The translations under genes and the position numbers were made by a program. Source: an uncultured Bacilli bacterium (GTDB lineage: Bacteria; Bacillota_I; Bacilli_A; RF39; UBA660). From it: 64,000 nucleotides of DNA. Under the pieces are notes generated by a model. It did no database searches and was not told where the DNA came from. It saw only the letters and a program-made list of their open reading frames with translations. Below, one piece after another: positions 17,003 through 53,496 of the stretch. The stretch covers positions 41,980 through 105,979 of the forward strand of contig CAKOXD010000003.1 in NCBI GenBank assembly GCA_934130005.1, given 5' to 3'. Each line of letters opens with the position of its first letter. Position 1 is the first letter of the stretch.

Positions 17003-17035
17003 TTTTTTTGTATAAAAAAACCTCAAAATGAGGCT
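17003..17035. terminator. Bidirectional terminator between convergent genes
   Basis: aaaaaaacctcaaaatgaggcttatttattttt forms the CCTCA/TGAGG stem. Confidence 0.55.
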
Positions 17036-19191
17036 TATTTATTTTTCTTTTGCTTAATTATATTTAATATTAAATTTATTAATACAAATACCATTGTTAT
17101 ACTTAAAACAATAATTAAATTTTTAGTTAATAATGAACTTTCTATACTAACAATTGTTTCTTTTATTAATCTAATTGTATATGTCATAGGAAGTATTGGA
17201 TTTAAGAATCTAAAACATTTTGTAACTGTTTCAATTGGGAATGTTCCTCCTGCAGCTGCAAGTTGTAATACTAAAATTATAAGTCCAATAAATTTTCCAA
17301 TATCACTAAAGTTTTCTATTAGGAATTCTAATATTGCTAAGAAACAATTTGATGTAAGTACTATTACAAAATAGTATAAGAATACATTTGTTATAGTAAA
17401 GTCTAATAATACTTGTAATAAGAATGCTAATAAAATTCCTGATAATGTTGCTAAAACATGATATGCTGCCATTCTTTTTACTCTTCTTGGTTCGTTAACT
17501 GATAATAATCCAAATCTTTCTTCTTTATCATAATATAACACTATAAACATCATTAGACTTCCTACCCATAAAGCTATTGAGATGAATAATGGTGCAAATG
17601 CAGTACCATAACTTGATATTTTATTTACCTCTTTTGTTTCTAATTTTACAGGTTCTTTTGAGTAATCAGATAATGATTCAACTTTTTTTAGATCATTTTT
17701 TGTATCATTTATTTTGTTGTTTAATTCTACTTTTGATTCTTCTACACTACTATTTAATGTAGTTGCTCCATTATATAATTTAGTTGTTCCATTACTTAAA
17801 GTAAGTGCTCCATTATTTAATCTGTTAACACCATTACTTAAAGTAAGTGCTCCACTTTCAAGAGTATTTACTCCTGAATATAAATTATATAATCCTGTAT
17901 TTAATGATTTAGATCCAATACTTAATTTATATAATCCTGTATTTAATTCAGTTAATCCATTACTTAATTCTTCAAGTGATGTTAATGTTTCAGTTTTAGC
18001 TTTTTCTTTTGCAGTTTTTGCTACTTGTTGTGCAACACTTACACTAACTGTAGAAGCAGTTTGTTCTGATGCATTCATTGATGTTGTTATTGCTAAATTG
18101 TATATTGTTTTATATAAATTACTGTTTTCATTATTTAACTCATCTAATAATGATTTTAAATTTTTATAATTATTACAATAACTTGCAAAGTTAGCATCAA
18201 TACTATTAGAAATACAATAAGTATCAGCATCTATTCCACATTGACTTAATCCTGTTTTTATATTAGTTAAATTTGTGTTATATGTTTGTTTTACACTATT
18301 AATTGCTTGTTTTCCAATTTTATCTTTACTTTCATTTGTAAAGCTTTTCTTTACTGTATTTACTGATAATGTTTTTATATTGTTTAATGTTTCATTATCA
18401 ATTGCTTCACTGTTATCTTCTTTTAATTTAGTAATTGAGTTATTTACTTCATTTTTTATTTTAGTGCTTCCATTATAAGCATTTGTAATTCCATTATTTA
18501 AACTATCTGAACCATCTATTATTGTTTTTGTTCCATTTTTTATTTTTGTTATTCCATCTTTTAATGAAATAGTTCCACCTTTTAATTCTTTTGTTCCACT
18601 ATAAAGTGTTAATACCCCTTCATTTACTTCTTTTGTTCCACTTTTTATACTATTAGTTCCATCATTAAGTTTTGAAAAACCATTGCTTATTTGATCTAAA
18701 CTTGATGGTACTTCGTTTATTGACGATGATAAATTATCTATAATACCTGAATTTATTTCATTGTCTAAACTTTTTTCTACTGTTACCATAACAGTATTAA
18801 TTATTTGACTAGATAAGTAATTTGATTTTTGATTTGGAGAATATGTTATAGTTGGATGTACTTTATTTTCTGTTCCAACACTTTCTATATTTTCTGTAAA
18901 ATCACTTGGTATATTTATGATAGCATAATATTTTCCATCATTTAATCCTTTATTTGCTTCTTCTTCATCTAAAATACTTAATTTTAATTTTTTAGATTTT
19001 TTTATTGAATTTATTAATTCATTACCTTTATCACCTTTATCACTATTTATGACTGCTACTGGTAAATTATCTATATTACCTTCTCCATATGGATTCCAGT
19101 ATGCTTTTAAATAGAAAAAGCTATACATAAAAGGTATTATTAAGACTGCACAAATTATAATTATTTTAAATAATTTATTTTCTTTTTTCAT
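17035..19191 (-). CDS. YhgE/Pip (phage infection protein) family membrane protein
   Basis: 718 aa. An N-terminal TM, a large extracellular region with repeated NxS/T-rich segments and a C-terminal ABC-2-like multi-TM domain match the YhgE/Pip architecture. Confidence 0.7.
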   Translation of the reverse strand: MKKENKLFKIIIICAVLIIPFMYSFFYLKAYWNPYGEGNIDNLPVAVINSDKGDKGNELINSIKKSKKLKLSILDEEEANKGLNDGKYYAIINIPSDFTENIESVGTENKVHPTITYSPNQKSNYLSSQIINTVMVTVEKSLDNEINSGIIDNLSSSINEVPSSLDQISNGFSKLNDGTNSIKSGTKEVNEGVLTLYSGTKELKGGTISLKDGITKIKNGTKTIIDGSDSLNNGITNAYNGSTKIKNEVNNSITKLKEDNSEAIDNETLNNIKTLSVNTVKKSFTNESKDKIGKQAINSVKQTYNTNLTNIKTGLSQCGIDADTYCISNSIDANFASYCNNYKNLKSLLDELNNENSNLYKTIYNLAITTSMNASEQTASTVSVSVAQQVAKTAKEKAKTETLTSLEELSNGLTELNTGLYKLSIGSKSLNTGLYNLYSGVNTLESGALTLSNGVNRLNNGALTLSNGTTKLYNGATTLNSSVEESKVELNNKINDTKNDLKKVESLSDYSKEPVKLETKEVNKISSYGTAFAPLFISIALWVGSLMMFIVLYYDKEERFGLLSVNEPRRVKRMAAYHVLATLSGILLAFLLQVLLDFTITNVFLYYFVIVLTSNCFLAILEFLIENFSDIGKFIGLIILVLQLAAAGGTFPIETVTKCFRFLNPILPMTYTIRLIKETIVSIESSLLTKNLIIVLSITMVFVLINLILNIIKQKKNK

Positions 19192-19203: not shown

Positions 19204-19749
19204 CTATTTAATTAATCCTTTCTTTAGAATTGAAGTTATTTCACTTGCTACTTTTACTTCATCTAGTTCATATTCATATTCAAATAATACTGATACAAAT
19301 ACATTATAAATAATAAATGCGGTTAAGTTAGTGTCACATTTTCTAATATTACCCTTTTTTATTTCTTCATCAAGTAAATTACTTATATATTTTATAATAT
19401 CATTATCATATATTTTTAAGAATGCTATGCTTTGTAAATCATTTTTATCTTTAATTAAATTTTTTACAATAGGGCTTTCTTTTCTTAGTTTTAACATTGT
19501 TATTATACTTTCAGTTAAACTATCAATAAATGATTCTTTTTTTGTTTTTTGTTCTATTTTATTTTTAATGCTTAATAATTCTTCTTCTATAAAATATTTA
19601 AATAATTCTTCTTTATCCTTAAAATAAGAATAAATTGTTTTTTTTGTGACATTAGCTTCTTTAGCAACTTCATCCATCGTAACTTTTTTATATCCATAAA
19701 GGTTAAAAAGTTCTCTTGCTTTATTTATTATTTCTTCCTTTTTATTCAT
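19204..19749 (-). CDS. TetR/AcrR family transcriptional regulator
   Basis: 181 aa with an N-terminal HTH (YKKVTMDEVAKEANVTKKTIYSYF). Confidence 0.8.
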   Translation of the reverse strand: MNKKEEIINKARELFNLYGYKKVTMDEVAKEANVTKKTIYSYFKDKEELFKYFIEEELLSIKNKIEQKTKKESFIDSLTESIITMLKLRKESPIVKNLIKDKNDLQSIAFLKIYDNDIIKYISNLLDEEIKKGNIRKCDTNLTAFIIYNVFVSVLFEYEYELDEVKVASEITSILKKGLIK

Positions 19750-19853: not shown

Positions 19854-20876
19854 TTATTTTATCAAATACCATTCTTGCATATAGTTTATTTTAGTTTTGC
19901 AGTACTCACAAGTATCTTTATTTACATCTATAGAAGCTCCACAGTTATGACATTTTATAATATTTATTCCACCTTTTAACTCATCTACATATCGTTTATT
20001 TTTCTTCAATATAAATTGTTTATTTTCTATTTTTTTATTTATTTTATTGTTTATGTATTTTATTATTCTTATATTTATTGTTACTTTTATTATAGTTTCT
20101 TCTTTGTTTATTAAATCAAAATCTAAGTAATCAATAATATCATAATCTATAATATCTTCATTTTCTAGATAGTAATATCTTTGTAATTCATAGTTAAAGT
20201 TATTAAAGAATGTCTTTTTAGATATATTATTTTTTTCTGCATTATTCCAAAATTCTATTTGTTTTTGATTCATTTTATTTTTATATATTTTAATAGGAAG
20301 TAATACTATTAAGGCATCTAACATATAGAATATATAGTAAAGTGAAAATCCTAATATTAAACTTCCTACTACTATCTTTGATATATCATATATATTAAAT
20401 GTTCTACCATGTGTTTTTATATATATAAACACCAATATAAAACTCATAATTAAATCTATTATAAAAGTTATTTTATTATATTTTTCATTATGCATTATAT
20501 TGTCTAAATGTTCTTTTGTTCCTAATTCTTTATTAATATAATCTATATTATAATATGTATTACAATAAGGACATCCATTAATAAATTCTTTTGTAGTTCC
20601 AGTCTTACCACAGTTTGGACATATTGTATCTTTATTTTCTTCTTCTTTAAATACATATGTATAATGTACCCTTGGATCAAAATTAGAAACCTTTCCTATT
20701 AAATATCCATCTTTATAGTATTTTTTTTCTAGTCTTATTCCGTTTATAACATCATCATTTATAGAGTTATCTGTATTTCTTTCTAATATTTTATCATTTA
20801 CTTTGTATTTTGTTTTTATGTTTATATTATATTTTTTTAATTTTTTATCATGAAAATTTTCTGTTATTAAACTCAT
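19854..20876 (-). CDS. Membrane protein with N- and C-terminal zinc ribbons
   Basis: 340 aa. CPNCGKTG…CPYCNTYY is near the N-terminus, 2-3 TM helices follow, and the C-terminus reads CHNCGASIDVNKDTCEYCKTKINYMQEWYLIK. That tail resembles the tails of ORFs 60557..61270 and 61273..62190. Confidence 0.5.
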   Translation of the reverse strand: MSLITENFHDKKLKKYNINIKTKYKVNDKILERNTDNSINDDVINGIRLEKKYYKDGYLIGKVSNFDPRVHYTYVFKEEENKDTICPNCGKTGTTKEFINGCPYCNTYYNIDYINKELGTKEHLDNIMHNEKYNKITFIIDLIMSFILVFIYIKTHGRTFNIYDISKIVVGSLILGFSLYYIFYMLDALIVLLPIKIYKNKMNQKQIEFWNNAEKNNISKKTFFNNFNYELQRYYYLENEDIIDYDIIDYLDFDLINKEETIIKVTINIRIIKYINNKINKKIENKQFILKKNKRYVDELKGGINIIKCHNCGASIDVNKDTCEYCKTKINYMQEWYLIK

Positions 20877-20884
20877 ATTTTCTC

Positions 20885-21241
20885 CTAATTATTATTGTTG
20901 TTGTTATTATTGTTATTATTATTATTTGATGATGAACCAGAGTATCCTCCCGAACCACTTGATGAAGTATAATGTGGTGTTATTCTAAATATAGTATTAC
21001 TTATTAATATAGCATCAAATGCACTTGTTTTTGGACTTGCTTCTGTTGTTTTAACAATTTTTGTTCCTTGTTTATAATTTATATACTTATTTGTAGTGTT
21101 TATTGAATTATTTTTATCTTCTGATAAAAAATCATATATTTCATTTAGTTGTTCATCTGTAAGATTAAAATATTTGGATAGTTCATAACATCTTTTCTTT
21201 CTTATGATTTCATTATATGTTTTAGCTTCTTTATTTATCAT
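20885..21241 (-). CDS. Small protein with Ser/Gly/Tyr-rich tail ending in poly-Asn (13 N)
   Basis: 118 aa; …TPHYTSSSGSGGYSGSSSNNNNNNNNNNNNN. Its start overlaps the stop of the upstream radical SAM gene (ATGA). Confidence 0.45.
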   Translation of the reverse strand: MINKEAKTYNEIIRKKRCYELSKYFNLTDEQLNEIYDFLSEDKNNSINTTNKYINYKQGTKIVKTTEASPKTSAFDAILISNTIFRITPHYTSSSGSGGYSGSSSNNNNNNNNNNNNN

Positions 21242-22971
21242 AAATTTTCCTCCTTTAAGTAATAAAATTCTATATTTTGAAATGGTAAATTAATAGCATT
21301 TATATGATAATAAGCATTATTTTTTTGTTTTATATAGTGATAATCTCTTAAAGCATTAGTTGTAAAAAATATGTTATTTGGACTTTCAGTTGATAAGTAA
21401 TTACTATATTCTTTTATAAATTTTGTTATATCATAACAAAGATATTCTGATTTATCGCTTTTATTTTTTTCGAGTACGTTTTTATAGACTTGTAATGAAG
21501 CAATATGTTCTTGTTTTATTCTTCCTTCATCACCATATTGAATTAGATTTCCACTGAGTAATATAATATATAATGAATTATTTAAAGGATAATCACATTC
21601 CATATCAAGTAAATTATTTTTTATATAAAGTTTTATTTTGCTTTCTTCTGTTAAATAAATTATATCTCTTGATTTTTTTATTATTTGTGATTCTAGCTTA
21701 TATTCTGTATCATCAACTTTTAATATAAATGCTTCATCACTATAAATATATTTTAATTTAGGATCTTCATTTATTATGTTATGTAATGTTTTAATATTGT
21801 TTTCTTCTTGTGGAATATATTTTTCTATACTAGAGGGATGCATTTTAGAAACATAAAAATATGTTGAATCTAAATTAGTATCTTTTTCATAATTTCTTTT
21901 TTTATATAATTCTTGTTGTAATTTACATGTATATGATTTGTTGTTTTTATACACATTTTTTACAAATGGGCATCCTGTTTTACAAATATATAAGTATCCA
22001 CATTTACTACATTCATCATTAAATTCAAGTCTATTATGATTTAGAAACATTTTTTCACGTGCTGTTTTAAGTATTTCTTCTACAGTATTATTATATATGT
22101 TTCCAAAATAGTAGTCTTTATTTTTTTGTCCTCTAACACATGAATACATATCACCGTTTTTTTCTAGTAAAAAGAATTTCTCACCACAGTTATCACAGTT
22201 TGTACAATATTCTGGTCCAAATTCATTAAACCAAGCTCCATTTACTCCTTTATCTAAAGATGTTCCATCAAATTCTTTGTGCATTCTATTAAAAAATTCT
22301 ACTTGTTCTTCTTCTGTTAATGGTGTAAGTAAATTATTACTATTAAATTGAAATCCTATCATGAAATTAAAGTCATTCATATCAAGTGATGTATTTTTAT
22401 CTAAAAATTTTATATTTTCTATCATTTCATCTATTAACAAATAATGTTCTTTAAAAATAGTTGCGGATACTTTCTTTTTATTGTTAATATTATTTAATAA
22501 TTCTATATTCTTTAGTATCTTATCAAGCGTTGTTTTATTTCCTTTTGTTACTCTAAATTTATCATGAAGTGAAAATGGTAAATCTAAACTTCCACTTACT
22601 GAGACATTATATTCTTTTATTGTATCTATGTGTTTATCTAAATTATATAAATTTGTTTTTATATGTGGACTTAAGGCTTTAAATCCATTTTCTTCTAACA
22701 GTTTTTTATTTTTTTTATAATAATTATATATATATTCAATTAATTCTCTAAATTCCTCTTTTTTTAGTGTTGTTACTTCTCCACCATGAAGTGATATATT
22801 AAATGGGATCACATTATCTTGCTTTAATTTTTCTACTGTATATTTTAGTGTATCTAATGCGCTATGTTTTGTACTGATATCTTTTGTATTTTCTTCTAAA
22901 TAACAATATTTACATGCCATATTACATGCCATAGTAGGCACATATAATAAATGAATAAATTTATAATCCAT
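21238..22971 (-). CDS. Radical SAM / SPASM-domain protein with uncharacterised ~220-aa C-terminal extension
   Basis: 577 aa. CNMACKYC (CX3CX2C) sits at residues 16-23. A SPASM-like Cys cluster reads CTNCDNCGEKFF…CVRG…CSKCGYLYICKTGCPF. Confidence 0.75.
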   Translation of the reverse strand: MDYKFIHLLYVPTMACNMACKYCYLEENTKDISTKHSALDTLKYTVEKLKQDNVIPFNISLHGGEVTTLKKEEFRELIEYIYNYYKKNKKLLEENGFKALSPHIKTNLYNLDKHIDTIKEYNVSVSGSLDLPFSLHDKFRVTKGNKTTLDKILKNIELLNNINNKKKVSATIFKEHYLLIDEMIENIKFLDKNTSLDMNDFNFMIGFQFNSNNLLTPLTEEEQVEFFNRMHKEFDGTSLDKGVNGAWFNEFGPEYCTNCDNCGEKFFLLEKNGDMYSCVRGQKNKDYYFGNIYNNTVEEILKTAREKMFLNHNRLEFNDECSKCGYLYICKTGCPFVKNVYKNNKSYTCKLQQELYKKRNYEKDTNLDSTYFYVSKMHPSSIEKYIPQEENNIKTLHNIINEDPKLKYIYSDEAFILKVDDTEYKLESQIIKKSRDIIYLTEESKIKLYIKNNLLDMECDYPLNNSLYIILLSGNLIQYGDEGRIKQEHIASLQVYKNVLEKNKSDKSEYLCYDITKFIKEYSNYLSTESPNNIFFTTNALRDYHYIKQKNNAYYHINAINLPFQNIEFYYLKEENL

Positions 22972-22980
22972 ACTACCACC

Positions 22981-24639
22981 CTAATTATAATATAAATATA
23001 ATGAAATAAAATTTGAATATGTATTAAGAGTTTCTACTTTCGATACTTTTACAGCTATATCGGAGTTTATTACTTTATATGGCGTATCTTTAGTTATTGT
23101 AAATGTAGTAACTTCTCCATTCATTTTATATTCCATTATGAATTTTTTTACTCCATTTTCTTCTTTTACTTCTTTTAAAGTCAAAGTTGAGTTATATATT
23201 TTTGAGTCTTTATAATAAACAAAGTTTTTTTCTTCTTTGATAGAGAAAATTGAAAATGCCACATGTTTAAATTTACTTTCATCAAAAAAGCTTACTTTTT
23301 TATTTTCTACTTTTGGTTCTTCTACAGTATTATCTTCTTCACCAAATTGTTTTACAATTGTTGGACTTTCTTTAAATGCTCTTTCATTTATATATATATT
23401 ACTTGGAAGTGTTATAGAATATAATCTACTACATTTTCTAAAAGCGGATGATCCTATTTCATTTAATTTACTGTTTTCTGAAATTTTTACTTCACTTAAA
23501 TTAGTTGCCCCATAAAATGCGTGTCCACCTATTCTTGTAACATTATCTGGTATTTCTATACTTTTTAATGATGTACATTCTTCAAAGGTATTACCTCTAA
23601 TTTCTGTTATATTTTCTGGTAATTTAATACTTTCAAGCGAACTACAATTTTTAAATGCACTTCCATGTATGGAAGTAATATTATCACTTAGATTTATATT
23701 TTTTAATGATTTGCATCCTTCAAAGGTACTTCCATTTATTTCTGTTAATGTATCAGGTAGTTCTATTTTTTCTAATGAAGTACAGTTTTTAAATGCACTT
23801 CCTCCTAAATAATTTAAATTATTAGGAAGTTTTACATAAATTAAATTACTATCATTTAAAAATACTCTTCCTCTTATTTCTTTTATGCTATCTGGTAAAT
23901 ATATTTTTTTTAAGTTTCTTAAATTAGCAAACACATTTCCTCTTATACTTAATACTTTTTTTCCTTTATATGTTTCTGGCACTTTAATTTCTTCTTTATT
24001 TATTAGTCCCATTGTATAAAATCTTAATGAATATCCGTCTTCATATTTTTCATAAAACATCATTGGTTTAAAAAATATAGCCATTGGTAAAATTATTGAT
24101 ATTAAAATAGGAATAATTTTTTTAGCATAATTTGGCATTACTTTATCACTTATAACAGATGATACAACAAGTGAAATATCTTCATCTGGTCTTGCTTTTA
24201 CTTGTTTATAAAGATAATTTACTATATTGTATTTTTTTATAAACATAATATAAACTACTACGTTTAAAATAAGCAAAAGATACATTAAACTTGATATATG
24301 AAAAAATACAGTTGAAAAAATTAAAAAATTTAAAATAGAAAAAATTAAAGTTAAATTAAATTTTCTTTTTTCTATATATTCTATTGCATCTTTATAATTA
24401 TAATTATTTTTTTTGAGTTCTTCTTTTATAAATGTTTTTATTATTTCCTTTTCACTTTTTCTATATATTGGTTCTATATCATTTTGTTCTTGTGATATTA
24501 TACCTGGTATTTTAAGGCTACTTCTACCTTTTTTATTAACTAAAATAACAATAACCATTATAATTATTGGTAAAGAACTAAACATTATCGAAAAAAATGT
24601 TGAAATTAATGTAATAACTAAATTAAAAATCACTTCCAT
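22981..24639 (-). CDS. Multi-TM N-terminal domain + BspA-type leucine-rich repeat (LRR_5) protein
   Basis: 552 aa with about 5 TM helices. At least 7 repeats fit the pattern L.DSI..I…AF..C.SL..I.LP. Confidence 0.65.
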   Translation of the reverse strand: MEVIFNLVITLISTFFSIMFSSLPIIIMVIVILVNKKGRSSLKIPGIISQEQNDIEPIYRKSEKEIIKTFIKEELKKNNYNYKDAIEYIEKRKFNLTLIFSILNFLIFSTVFFHISSLMYLLLILNVVVYIMFIKKYNIVNYLYKQVKARPDEDISLVVSSVISDKVMPNYAKKIIPILISIILPMAIFFKPMMFYEKYEDGYSLRFYTMGLINKEEIKVPETYKGKKVLSIRGNVFANLRNLKKIYLPDSIKEIRGRVFLNDSNLIYVKLPNNLNYLGGSAFKNCTSLEKIELPDTLTEINGSTFEGCKSLKNINLSDNITSIHGSAFKNCSSLESIKLPENITEIRGNTFEECTSLKSIEIPDNVTRIGGHAFYGATNLSEVKISENSKLNEIGSSAFRKCSRLYSITLPSNIYINERAFKESPTIVKQFGEEDNTVEEPKVENKKVSFFDESKFKHVAFSIFSIKEEKNFVYYKDSKIYNSTLTLKEVKEENGVKKFIMEYKMNGEVTTFTITKDTPYKVINSDIAVKVSKVETLNTYSNFISLYLYYN

Positions 24640-25522: not shown

Positions 25523-25604
25523 ATTTTCTTTTAATAAATTAAAATAATTCTATCTATCTTGTATATAAATTTATTATCATAAATTGAATGTTTCTAAAGT
25601 TTAT

Positions 25605-25705
25605 TTTTGATATCTTGATATATTAAGTATAATTCCCATACTACATAATGTTATTAATAAACTAGAGCCTCCATAACTTAAAAATGGAAGTGTTACACCT
25701 GTTAC
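25605..25705. repeat. Direct repeat copy 1 of the ftsW 3' end (101 bp, 1 mismatch to 26319..26419)
   Basis: tttgatatcttgatatattaagtataattcccatactacataatgttatta(a/g)taaactagagcctccataacttaaaaatggaagtgttacacctgttact. Copy 1 is followed in frame by its own TAA (25601..25603). Confidence 0.8.
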
Positions 25706-25781
25706 TAGTTCAAAGGGAGATAATTTCATAAGTTGCAGTTCTAAGGAGAGATGATTTTTATAATTATTTATCACAAAAACA

Positions 25782-26111: not shown

Positions 26112-26285
26112 TTAGCAATTATTTGATAAAAAAATATTTTTTATTATTTTTTCTATCTCAAAAGATATACATTCACTACCAGTTTCATCTATAACGCTAA
26201 ATACTTTCCCATAATTATTTAACCAAGAAAAATCTTGATATTCTCTTAATTTAAATTCTACATCGTCTATTTTTTGTATTATCAT
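26112..26285 (-). CDS. 57-aa ORF, possibly an N-terminal gene fragment
   Basis: MIIQKIDDVEFKLREYQDFSWLNNYGKVFSVIDETGSECISFEIEKIIKNIFLSNNC. It is below the ORF-track cutoff and I recognised no domain. Confidence 0.2.
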   Translation of the reverse strand: MIIQKIDDVEFKLREYQDFSWLNNYGKVFSVIDETGSECISFEIEKIIKNIFLSNNC

Positions 26286-26313: not shown

Positions 26314-27411
26314 CTATCTTTGATATCTTGATATATTAAGTATAATTCCCATACTACATAATGTTATTAGTAAACTAGAGCCTCCATAACTTAAAAATGG
26401 AAGTGTTACACCTGTTACTGGTATTAATCCTGTTACTACCATTAAATTTAATAATGCTTGAAATGATAGACCAAAAGTAATACCAAATGCTAAAAATTTA
26501 CCAAATGGTTCTTTTATATTTCTTGATATTTTAAGTCCTTTAATTATAATTATTAAAAATAATGTAGCAACTATTAATATTCCCATAAATCCAAATTCTT
26601 CACTTATAATTGAAAATATAAAATCTGTTTGAGGTTCTGGTAAATAAAAGTGTTTTTGTCTTGAATTTAAAAATCCATATCCAAATAAACCACCTGGACC
26701 TATAGCATATAAACTCTGTATTATTTGAAATCCGCTTCCTAAAGGATCACTCCATGGATTTAAAAAGGATAATATTCTTTTTAATCTATAAGGTGCGACT
26801 ACAATAAGTCCTGTTATTCCAAGTAGTCCTATTAAAAATAAATATATAAAGAATTTTAAATTAACCCCACCTACAAATAATAATCCAATTATTGTTACTA
26901 TTATAATAAATCCTGTTCCAAAATCTGGTTGTAACATAATAAGAGCAAATATAATAAAAGTTATAAATAGAATTGGTAATACACCTTTTTTGATATTCTT
27001 TATTATTTTTTCATTATTGCTTAAATATTTTGATGTAAATATTATAAGTGCCAGTTTACAGGCTTCACTTGGTTGAATTCCAAATGATCCTATTCCAAAC
27101 CAACTACGACTTCCATTTCTAACTGTTCCTATTCCTGGAATTGCTACTAATATTAATAAAATAATACAAGCAAATAATATTATATTGGCTTTTTCATAGT
27201 ATATTTTATAATCTATTTTGCTTATTATTATCATCAAAAACATACCAATTAATAAAAATAATGCTTGATTTTTCACAAATTTAAACGGATCGTTAAATTT
27301 GTATTCTGCCCATACATAAGATGCTGAATAAACCATGATAACTCCAAATATACTAATTGTTAAAATAGCTAAAAATAATGTATAATCTATACTGTTTTTT
27401 TTCATAACCAT
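26314..27411 (-). CDS. FtsW/RodA/SpoVE family peptidoglycan glycosyltransferase (SEDS)
   Basis: The track ORF runs 26314..27489. The likely start is MVMKKNS (27411), where the MraY TGA overlaps the ATG. About 10 TM helices and conserved SEDS blocks (…PSEACKLALII…, …GLLFVGG…). Confidence 0.85.
   Translation of the reverse strand: MVMKKNSIDYTLFLAILTISIFGVIMVYSASYVWAEYKFNDPFKFVKNQALFLLIGMFLMIIISKIDYKIYYEKANIILFACIILLILVAIPGIGTVRNGSRSWFGIGSFGIQPSEACKLALIIFTSKYLSNNEKIIKNIKKGVLPILFITFIIFALIMLQPDFGTGFIIIVTIIGLLFVGGVNLKFFIYLFLIGLLGITGLIVVAPYRLKRILSFLNPWSDPLGSGFQIIQSLYAIGPGGLFGYGFLNSRQKHFYLPEPQTDFIFSIISEEFGFMGILIVATLFLIIIIKGLKISRNIKEPFGKFLAFGITFGLSFQALLNLMVVTGLIPVTGVTLPFLSYGGSSLLITLCSMGIILNISRYQR
26319..26419. 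repeat. Direct repeat copy 2 (authentic 3' end of ftsW/spoVE-family gene)
   Basis: It matches 25605..25705. Confidence 0.8.
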
Positions 27412-28391
27412 ACTCCATAAATTATTGCAAGCATAGATCCTATAAGTCCGATAATCCAAAATAGTTTTACTATATCTCTTTCTTCCCATCCTATTTTTTC
27501 AAATGTATGATGTATTGGAGTCATTAAGAATAACCTTTTATGAGTTAGTTTATAATAATATCTTTGTATTAAGCATGTAAGCGTTTCAAGTACAAAGACA
27601 ATTCCTATTAGTATTAAAAGTAATTCATGTCTAGATAATATAGCAAGTGATCCTAAAGTTGCACCAAGTGCTAAAGACCCAGTGTCTCCCATAAATATTT
27701 TAGCAGGATTTGTATTAAATACTAAAAATCCCATGATACCACCTACTAATATAAAACAGAATAAAGCGATTTCTTCATATCCTTCTAACCATCCAGTATT
27801 ATACATTATTATTCCAAATGTAGTAATTGATATTACTGAAAGACCTCCTGCTAAACCATCTAATCCATCTGTTATGTTTACTGCATTTGAACTTGCTACT
27901 AAAATAAATAAAATAAATAATCCATAAAACCAATTAATATCTAATTTTAAATTTAATGAATGAATCCATAATAGTGGTTCATTATCTGCTTTTAAAAATA
28001 AGTAAAAGAATACAATAGCAACTAGTATTTGAGATATTAATTTTTCTACTTCTGTTAATCCTTTGTTATTATTTCTTTTTATTATTAAATAATCATCTAA
28101 AAATCCTATTAATGAGTATGATAAAAAAGTAAATATTATAATAATAAAATTATAAGTTATACTAATTTTATTTGTAAAATATAAAACAAGAATAGAAAAT
28201 ATTGTTGAAAATATAAATATTAATCCTCCCATTGTTGGAGTATGTGACTTCTTTTTATGTCTTTCTTCTAAATATATACTGAGTCTTTGATTCGCTCTTT
28301 TTTTTAAAATTGGAATTAAGATGATTGCAAATAAAAGAGCTAACATAAATCCTATTAGACTTGCTAATATAGCTTTTGTAAGTATAAGCAT
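27402..28391 (-). CDS. mraY: Phospho-N-acetylmuramoyl-pentapeptide transferase
   Basis: 329 aa and 10 TM. Conserved MraY blocks: NAVNITDGLDGLA, HHTFE…, and D-D-rich loops. Confidence 0.9.
   Translation of the reverse strand: MLILTKAILASLIGFMLALLFAIILIPILKKRANQRLSIYLEERHKKKSHTPTMGGLIFIFSTIFSILVLYFTNKISITYNFIIIIFTFLSYSLIGFLDDYLIIKRNNNKGLTEVEKLISQILVAIVFFYLFLKADNEPLLWIHSLNLKLDINWFYGLFILFILVASSNAVNITDGLDGLAGGLSVISITTFGIIMYNTGWLEGYEEIALFCFILVGGIMGFLVFNTNPAKIFMGDTGSLALGATLGSLAILSRHELLLILIGIVFVLETLTCLIQRYYYKLTHKRLFLMTPIHHTFEKIGWEERDIVKLFWIIGLIGSMLAIIYGVWL

Positions 28392-52546: not shown

Positions 52547-53496
<950 letters not shown>

Follow-up and report, generated by a model that had tools for sequence, protein, structure and literature searches.

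A radical SAM/SPASM enzyme paired with an asparagine-tailed protein in gut Bacilli, with relatives in environmental bacteria and beside phage tail fibres

Radical S-adenosylmethionine (SAM) enzymes with a SPASM domain are the main source of new peptide chemistry. Precedents within this class join Trp to the C-beta of Asn (DynA), a Cys sulfur to the C-beta of Asn (NxxcB) and a Thr oxygen to the C-alpha of Gln (TqqB), and to our knowledge no known member has a homopolymeric Asn substrate, the C-terminal domain described below or a phage tail-fibre context. The present analysis concerns a four-gene operon in a stretch of 64,000 nucleotides (nt) from an uncultured Bacilli bacterium (contig CAKOXD010000003.1; the whole stretch is here called the window), in which a radical SAM/SPASM enzyme is followed by a small protein ending in 13 Asn residues. 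Our preferred reading, to which we give a probability of about 0.55, is that the enzyme, while resembling the anaerobic sulfatase maturase (anSME), acts on C-termini with an Asn run, which it recognises and modifies by oxidation, and that the window holds the gut-Bacilli version of a widespread, undescribed module. The operon and its parts are as follows (aa, amino acids).

21238 to 22971, minus strand: gene of the 577-aa radical SAM/SPASM enzyme, core gene of the module
20885 to 21241, minus strand: gene of the 118-aa Asn-tailed protein, soluble, second core gene
22981 to 24639, minus strand: gene of the 552-aa leucine-rich repeat (LRR) protein, a membrane protein
19854 to 20876, minus strand: gene of the 340-aa Zn-ribbon protein, a membrane protein
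22903 to 22926, minus strand: CX3CX2C radical SAM cluster motif (Cys16, Cys20, Cys23)
21925 to 22206, minus strand: SPASM region (Cys256, 259, 262, 278, 321, 324, 330, 334, 349)
21241 to 21894, minus strand: C-terminal domain of the enzyme, residues 360-577, a helical linker and then a beta-sandwich
20888 to 20926, minus strand: run of 13 Asn codons, AAT and AAC interleaved, after Ser-Ser-Ser and with the stop codon directly next

All four minus-strand open reading frames (ORFs) of the packed operon lie where the original prediction, made from the letters of the window, had placed them. Its 4-nt overlap also stood, but the other two junctions, given as 10 and 9 nt, were each off by one: in order, the genes lie 9 nt apart, overlap by 4 nt (ATGA) and lie 8 nt apart. 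The start of the 118-aa gene overlaps the stop codon of the enzyme gene in this ATGA, so that the predicted coupling to a partner ending in 13 Asn was borne out by both the overlap and the codons. The stop codon of the 118-aa gene itself coincides in part with an AGGAG Shine-Dalgarno sequence. The protein ends in ...TSSSGSGGYSGSSS followed by the 13 Asn, the putative modification site. In the window, which has about 22% GC, a run of at least five Asn was found only in this protein among 62 ORFs of at least 80 aa. Its body shows the conserved N-terminal motifs ETYxEIIRKKRC...IYxFL and ...IDG..S...F.I.PHY, which are followed by a Ser/Gly-rich linker and the poly-Asn run, and no family match to it was found in Pfam, NCBIfam or PHROGs. 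A word-index search with this protein returned only two proteins, a scarcity which reflects a limit of sensitivity, since tblastn finds the protein in 79 of 80 related loci.

Close homologues of the enzyme, 576-590 aa long and 66-82% identical to it, number more than 120 and are named at most 'radical SAM protein [Bacilli bacterium]'. When one genome per GTDB species was scanned, 229 stretches encoding a relative were obtained, and the counts for the gut clade were taken from the best 80 of these. All 80 come from gut or rumen metagenome-assembled genomes (MAGs) of uncultured organisms with small genomes, labelled Bacilli, Tenericutes, Mycoplasma sp. CAG:877, Clostridium sp. CAG:524, CAG:571 or CAG:417, Candidatus Coprovivens or Faecimonas; their names point to an RF39-like lineage. 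Across these loci the enzyme is 66-82% identical, and tblastn with the window proteins detected the LRR protein and the enzyme in 80/80, the small protein in 79/80 and the Zn-ribbon protein in 72/80, with the order LRR, radical SAM, poly-Asn, Zn-ribbon kept in every gut locus with a long enough contig. The neighbours of the operon in the window (GNAT, FtsW, TetR, ABC-2/YhgE-like) are found again in no more than 2-5 of the 80, and as these four genes are kept and their flanks are not, the operon consists of these four genes. The four-gene arrangement is far beyond chance. It should also be noted that one MAG (RGIG9051) carries two operon copies on two contigs (L001, 7085-7128, and L002); in one copy an extra base before the Asn codons leads to a stop after ...GSSS and leaves eight Asn codons out of frame, for which an error of assembly, a pseudogene and a slippage-type switch are possible explanations.

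Beyond the gut, a metagenome scan with the family alignment gave more than 519 loci from many habitats, of which 80 were kept. Clade A, mostly high-GC and environmental, has a membrane protein of about 155 aa upstream, then the enzyme and a tail protein ending in N14-G. Clade B, low-GC and from sediment or marine samples, has the enzyme, a tail protein ending in N13-GNNNG and a protein of about 270 aa with a transmembrane (TM) segment at each end, while clade C, from the gut and including the window, has the LRR protein, the enzyme, a tail protein ending in N13-R and the Zn-ribbon protein. On a 64%-GC contig, for example, a gene overlapping the enzyme stop codon by 4 nt encodes a 160-aa protein ending in ...GQRKPGQS-N18-G; on a 57%-GC contig the downstream 120-aa protein ends in ...DGTWT-N10-G and shares RRC...DFL...K.N.I motifs with the window protein. 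An Asn-run-tailed ORF was found adjacent to the radical SAM gene in 143 of the 150 loci that extend at least 650 nt beyond the enzyme gene, at GC contents of 0.23-0.68, often with a 4-nt overlap between the two genes. Co-occurrence of the enzyme and a poly-Asn protein, which had been proposed as the test of their relation, is thus the rule. The cellular partners are proteins of 120-190 aa that end in Ser-(Asn)~14-(Gly/Arg), and their bodies were found to be homologous between clades by hhalign (A to B with 97.9% probability, B to C with E=1.6e-5), so that the pair of enzyme and tail protein is old. Ordinary chromosomal genes surround the modules.

The membrane partners of the three clades showed no mutual homology by hhalign. 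Pfam gave nothing significant for the partners in the other clades (a GIDE match at E=0.039 was discounted), and the environmental clades lack the LRR protein. It and the Zn-ribbon protein are accessories specific to the gut Bacilli clade, and the tight four-gene operon of the original prediction stands with the correction that the conserved unit is only two genes, radical SAM and Asn-tailed protein. Some features of individual tails may be recorded here. In the environmental contigs L081 (3103-3585), L084 (4878-5240) and L086-L141, at 55-68% GC, the gene after the radical SAM homologue ends in 10-22 Asn in a row and then Gly; tails in another clade end in N13-GNNNG or in GNNGNNG repeats; and clade A tail proteins carry, immediately ahead of the tail, a hydrophobic segment together with a cluster of basic residues.

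Statistics on 148 homologous tails indicate that the run itself is selected. The number of Asn residues ranges from 6 to 28 (median 14, mode 13-14), with 12-15 Asn in 107 tails. The residue preceding the run is Ser in 139/148 (94%) and Thr in 6/148, that is, Ser or Thr in 145/148; the run is followed by R in 68 tails, by G in 37, by nothing in 25 and otherwise by short extensions of the GNNNG type. The GGYSG/Tyr motif that had been stressed for the window protein is not conserved outside the gut Bacilli clade, the conserved feature being instead Ser/Thr and the run. In genomes of 60-68% GC the runs have 14-22 Asn although the rest of the protein contains 2.6% Asn. At low GC, AAT makes up 0.57 of the Asn codons in the run but 0.76 of those in the neighbouring enzyme gene; at high GC the two fractions are 0.36 and 0.22, so that codon use in the run is pulled toward parity at every genome GC, and AAT and AAC are interleaved, as in TCCTCTCTCCCTCC (T = AAT, C = AAC). 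Parity and interleaving fit selection for the amino-acid run and against slippage-prone pure repeats, and the interleaved codons argue that the tail is selected and is not an artefact of AT bias. One nearly pure AAC tract of 22 Asn occurs in L087, the second longest run after that of L136 (28).

The enzyme of 577 aa matches Radical_SAM, Fer4_12 and SPASM in Pfam, and the CX3CX2C motif and auxiliary-cluster domain that had been read from its translation were both upheld by the domain matches and by the invariance of the cysteines. It belongs to the radical SAM superfamily by PF04055 (43.7 bits against a cut-off of 29.5) and to the SPASM proteins by PF13186 (27.5 against 21.5) and TIGR04085 (43.8 against 27). 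Cys16, Cys20 and Cys23 are invariant in 79 aligned homologues and in a divergent family alignment. All nine cysteines of the SPASM region are invariant in the 79 sequences and eight of the nine family-wide, in an alignment extending to members with 30-40% identity; in the high-GC clade another residue takes the place of Cys259. Eight invariant cysteines are enough for two fully Cys-ligated auxiliary [4Fe-4S] clusters, which we take to be ligated as in anSME. The enzyme begins 15 residues before CX3CX2C and thus, having no N-terminal extension, has no RiPP recognition element (RRE) domain there (RiPP, ribosomally synthesised and post-translationally modified peptide); no PqqD-like RRE was found fused to the enzyme, which gave no PqqD match, nor as a separate gene in the operon.

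Assignment to a described family was attempted by score. In NCBIfam, 34 radical SAM/SPASM models match the enzyme, the best being DynA and anSME with 92 bits each. For DynA this score (2.8e-26) lies below a cut-off of 450, and for the anSME equivalog (TIGR03942 / NF010308) 92.3 bits stand against 349.45; DynA, PapB, DarE/W, HxsB, AmcB, YhhB, GrrM, XyeB, QhpD, CefB and others gave 32-92 bits against cut-offs of 265-855. Against PDB sequences, a diverse family profile found anSMEcpe (4K36, E=1.6e-16) as the closest solved structure, residues 15-362 of the profile being collinear with 12-354 of anSME, followed by weaker matches to CteB (2e-7) and SuiB (3e-5). Only this diverse profile reached anSME; phmmer of the enzyme alone and a profile of close homologues gave no match among the PDB sequences. 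No sulfatase with C/S-x-P/A-x-R was found among the operon proteins and the three flanking genes scanned. Judged from sequence, then, the enzyme core resembles anSME but the enzyme is not an anSME by score, domain content or partner. The original prediction was to be abandoned if the enzyme grouped with anSME or another known non-peptide maturase and its homologues never occurred with the small protein; the core does lie closest to anSME, and the second half is clearly false.

The most distinctive part of the enzyme is its C-terminal domain. It had been described as an uncharacterised domain of about 220 aa, and it was found to have 218 aa and no described relative. Two invariant motifs mark it, YGDExRxKQxH and TTxALRDxHYxKxxxNAYYHIxAINLPF, and the last 60 residues of the enzyme are nearly invariant (NNIFFTTxALRDYHYxKQKNNAYYHIxAINLPFQNIEF). 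A phmmer search of this domain against 1.84 billion representative proteins returned only 98 proteins; the long matches place it at the C-terminus of proteins of about 590-616 aa and the rest are short fragments. The long matches whose sequences were read are radical SAM enzymes of the same family, and among the 98 matches no other architecture was seen. Its invariant residues (Tyr, His, Arg, Lys, Asn) are common to the cellular branch and to a phage branch of the family.

This phage branch was detected by tblastn, which placed a full-length family member in Campylobacter phage CAM-P21 (L166, MW462221.2, 3241-8138), where it is annotated as hypothetical, and a further member in a prophage on a C. 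coli megaplasmid. The phage gene order is baseplate J, tail protein I, tail fibre, a 211-aa protein, the radical SAM enzyme, a DUF1353 protein, a fibre-like protein and tail sheath. In PHROGs the phage enzyme is phrog_1802 ('radical SAM domain-containing protein'), which the window enzyme matches at 8e-41 over residues 11-569 including the C-terminal domain motifs; the DUF1353 protein is classed as a tail assembly chaperone and the 211-aa protein as phrog_10241, the latter showing no homology by hhalign to the body of the Asn-tailed protein. The proposed 'Asn-tail rSAM' family, which includes phrog_1802, shares a radical SAM/SPASM core, the YGDExRxKxxH ... NAYYHIxAINLPF domain and an adjacent product with [S/T] before an Asn run.

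In CAM-P21 the tail fibre ends in ...YAPSGSTNNNNY (...SGSTNNNNY), and in the phage-type loci L166, L167 and L168-L185 tail fibres or small upstream proteins end in Ser/Thr and 2-7 Asn. In 18 IMG/VR loci and related contigs, the second gene upstream of the enzyme gene encodes a tail fibre that is variable and 263-689 aa long; on large phage contigs its product is a small protein of 84-109 aa. The ending NNNS is also present on a 1000-aa protein encoded one gene beyond this position. Endings observed include SSNNNNY, ATNNNNY, SCNNNNN, STGNNF, SMGNNS, SSGNNF, FSNNNNNNLAGNV and SSNNNNNNRG, the bodies of the fibres differing while the Asn tails persist. When the pattern was defined as Ser or Thr, zero to two residues, at least two Asn and zero to six residues to the C-terminus ([ST]-x0-2-N>=2-x0-6), it was present in 16 of 18 distinct proteins two genes upstream and in 2 of 174 other ORFs of the loci (Fisher 2.7e-19, which overstates independence as the phage sequences are related). 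The pattern points to modification of receptor-binding proteins by a radical SAM enzyme that the phage itself encodes.

Two further observations belong to the viral sequences. Proteins of 76-84 aa upstream of the radical SAM gene in L085 (247-477) and L183 (5260-5514) have Gly-rich tails with Asn and Cys, ...GGGGHSGNNNSKCSG and ...RNNNGNNNNSCSGGW, which may represent another type of substrate. When 2.9 million viral contigs were scanned for (AAY)11-GGN-stop, one match was obtained (L186, 2275-2313), a tiny stop-bounded frame (LSN13G*) just upstream of a gene and apparently non-coding; no radical SAM gene is present on its 4.9-kb contig.

A mechanism can be proposed on the preferred reading. 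The beta-sandwich domain would dock the Asn-run C-terminus, as it is the only non-catalytic part kept in every branch and the Asn run is the only feature common to the partners. The radical SAM cluster would then cleave SAM, and the 5'-deoxyadenosyl radical would take a hydrogen from a residue of the Ser/Thr/Cys-Asn run. The two auxiliary clusters would take the second electron to give a net oxidation, to which an anSME-like core with two fully Cys-ligated auxiliary clusters points; the enzyme alignments show no additional conserved Cys that could serve as hydrogen-atom donor for epimerisation. Candidate products are a Ser/Thr/Cys-to-Asn (thio)ether, a link at Asn C-beta or a dehydrogenation. 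The reaction would probably be repeated along the run, because runs of 2-7 in phages and 11-17 in cells go with the same enzyme architecture, which makes a fixed spacer unlikely and repeated action likelier. With no linked protease or exporter, and with structural proteins as phage partners, the product probably stays on the protein, which would remain uncleaved and act at the membrane with lineage-specific membrane partners. In the window these would be the LRR protein, with repeats predicted outside the cell, and the Zn-ribbon/NTF2-like protein, and in phages the same enzyme family would treat the C-terminal tip of tail fibres.

An envelope or adhesion role is suggested by the membrane partners in every cellular clade, the extracellular LRR here and the fibre tips in phages; nothing in the analysis supports the spore layer that had been suggested in the original prediction. 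A bolder version holds that the Asn tail is processively converted into a regular new polymer, either a ladder of cross-links (side-chain or backbone) or another repeated oxidation, at the cell envelope and at phage fibre tips. We regard this as a tentative idea, more doubtful than probable.

Several points weigh against the preferred reading. The status of the Asn-tailed protein as presumed substrate rests on gene linkage and the shared tail, and translational coupling fits a stoichiometric complex or scaffold equally. Runs of 11-17 in cells and 2-7 in phages mean that one chemistry must tolerate both, or else that the phage signal is weaker; that signal also comes from related sequences, and the phage-clade loci L082 and L182 have no Asn tail. 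Searches with the C-terminal domain gave no informative fold match, and its docking role is a guess. A catalytic-base residue like that of anSME is seemingly not kept in the enzyme, and the partner has no exporter or signal peptide that would account for its arrival at the extracellular LRR domain.

Of the other explanations considered, the one in which the Asn-tailed protein is a stoichiometric subunit, tether or regulator, with the enzyme acting on the LRR protein, a lipid or cell-wall precursor or a small molecule, is unlikely, though with something in its favour. The 4-nt overlaps imply roughly 1:1 synthesis, membrane proteins always accompany the cellular modules, and the hydrophobic segment of the clade A partners lies just before the tail. 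However, the membrane partners of the three clades are unrelated and so offer no conserved alternative substrate, the S/T-Asn tail is the sole thing common to the differing phage upstream proteins, and a conserved Ser/Thr/Cys at position -1 suggests chemistry over tethering. A classical RiPP cluster, in which the 118-aa protein would be a long-leader precursor whose Ser/Gly/Asn core is cleaved and exported as a bacteriocin or signal, the membrane proteins serving export or immunity, is improbable to a similar or slightly greater degree. A radical SAM/SPASM gene beside a small ORF with a low-complexity C-terminus is the usual signature of such clusters, and the NCBIfam matches are mostly RiPP maturases (DynA, PapB, DarW, cyclophane synthases), but there is no protease or ABC exporter in any clade and no RRE domain. 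The identity of 66-82% across 80 gut loci and the housekeeping surroundings are also unlike sporadic bacteriocin clusters, the partner bodies (100-150 aa) look folded and are conserved across clades, and the tailed proteins of phages are structural tail fibres of 263-1000 aa.

A pathway to a peptide-derived cofactor or metabolite, like PQQ or mycofactocin, would have each Asn converted and released from the run as a multi-copy precursor. PqqE and MftC are SPASM enzymes, a homopolymer would supply many product copies per precursor, and high conservation in reduced gut genomes fits a housekeeping product, yet in none of the clades is a peptidase or further tailoring enzyme linked to the module, and phage tail fibres make little sense as tailed partners, so that we give this proposal little credence. 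Least credible is that poly-Asn is a neutral by-product of AT-richness through AAT slippage and the enzyme a plain anaerobic sulfatase maturase. The 22% GC of the window speaks for it, as do anSME being the closest solved structure and the joint best NCBIfam match; against it are tails of 14-22 Asn with interleaved codons in genomes of 60-68% GC, the uniqueness of the Asn run in the window, an anSME score of 92 bits where 349 are required, the extra conserved 218-aa domain in the enzyme and the lack of a sulfatase in the operon. The high-GC orthologues refute it.

The two accessory proteins of the gut clade could be described in part. In the LRR protein a BspA-type LRR_5 domain was recognised (Pfam 1.5e-58; PF13306, 196.7 bits against a cut-off of 27.7), and the HupY/LrrG adhesin equivalog of NCBIfam gave 70 against 1250, so that it is no member of that family. 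Hydropathy indicates four to five N-terminal TM helices (about residues 3-35, 96-137 and 173-192), which are followed by the repeats at about 200-430 and a variable C-terminal domain. The protein lies directly upstream of the radical SAM gene in 80/80 gut-clade loci, at 33-62% identity. The 340-aa protein contains two CxxC...CxxC zinc ribbons, Cys86/89/102/105 and Cys309/312/323/326, which flank a TM hairpin at about 136-195 (two TM segments by hydropathy); its soluble parts are NTF2/Tim44-like, and the zinc-ribbon matches in Pfam are weak and sub-threshold. No TM segments were found by hydropathy in the enzyme or in the 118-aa protein. PADLOC models gave no match for any of the four proteins, and a reading as a defence system was rejected on this ground. 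A promoter and terminator scan of the window gave fewer promoter-like sites than shuffled sequence and no terminators, and is uninformative in AT-rich DNA.

Downstream of the operon, a TetR-family regulator (19204-19749, minus strand) is followed by a 718-aa YhgE/Pip-like ABC-2 membrane protein (17035-19191, minus strand) with a long repeated central region rich in Asn/Gly/Leu/Ser; the TetR and YhgE-like pair lies beside the operon elsewhere in only 2-3 of 80 loci. On the other side, a 108-nt direct repeat, 97% identical, lies at 25602-25709 and 26315-26422 of the window. It is a copy of the 3' end of an ftsW-like gene (26314-27489), 713 nt downstream of that gene, and yields a 57-aa ORF (25601-25774) identical to the FtsW C-terminus, with a segment of about 600 nt between the repeats that holds another 57-aa ORF (26112-26285). 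The repeat pair is either an insertion footprint or an assembly artefact. A GC spike (0.35 against about 0.22) at 52564-53472 on the minus strand corresponds to a 302-aa collagen-like protein of nearly all G-x-T triplets (GATGPT...), resembling BclA-type exosporium or surface filaments. No rRNA, tRNA or Rfam families were detected anywhere in the 64-kb window.

At present every module protein carries the annotation 'hypothetical' or 'radical SAM protein'. Neither the small protein nor the C-terminal domain nor the module as a whole is covered by a model in Pfam (2025 copy), NCBIfam release 20 or PADLOC, and searches of the full-text literature gave nothing linking radical SAM enzymes to poly-Asn tails or tail fibres; a CJIE1 literature match concerns other genes. 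The earlier statement that no characterised system could be named for the four proteins thus held in Pfam, NCBIfam, PADLOC and the literature. The module gives a sharply defined pair of one enzyme and one small protein with a 13-residue target, and may reveal new Asn chemistry and a function for bacterial poly-Asn tracts. It may also reveal a post-translational step in phage receptor-binding proteins, with a bearing on host range and phage engineering. Were the polymer version true, with bacteria of many phyla as users, a phage virion protein would for the first time be seen to undergo radical SAM modification, and a poly-Asn tract to be put to enzymatic use.

Among the known systems, anSME (TIGR03942; PDB 4K36) is alike in its core length, collinear and with no N-terminal RRE, and in its CX3CX2C motif and eight SPASM cysteines. 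It acts on proteins, not on leader peptides, at Ser or Cys, and here Ser/Thr/Cys precedes the Asn run. The window enzyme differs in its extra 218-aa domain, in its score of 92 against 349 bits and in its partner, which is Asn-tailed and translationally coupled whereas that of anSME is a sulfatase with C/S-x-P-x-R. DynA (dynobactin), NxxcB, TqqB and PapB share the radical SAM/SPASM chemistry class, but the window family lacks their RRE and leader logic and a linked protease or exporter, and its presumed substrate is an Asn tail on a 120-190-aa protein or phage fibre. PoyD of proteusin/polytheonamide biosynthesis offers an analogy, in that one radical SAM enzyme acts repeatedly along an Asn-rich peptide; it is not a SPASM enzyme of the window family, and epimerisation is redox-neutral. 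PHROG 1802, with no assigned function in PHROGs, belongs to the same family as the window enzyme by a full-length match and differs in its setting, in tail-fibre modules beside phrog_10241 and DUF1353 with presumed targets of only 2-7 Asn. Overall, the module would be of a known kind, a radical SAM/SPASM maturase with its cognate protein, in which the substrate type, the recognition domain and the phage context are new.

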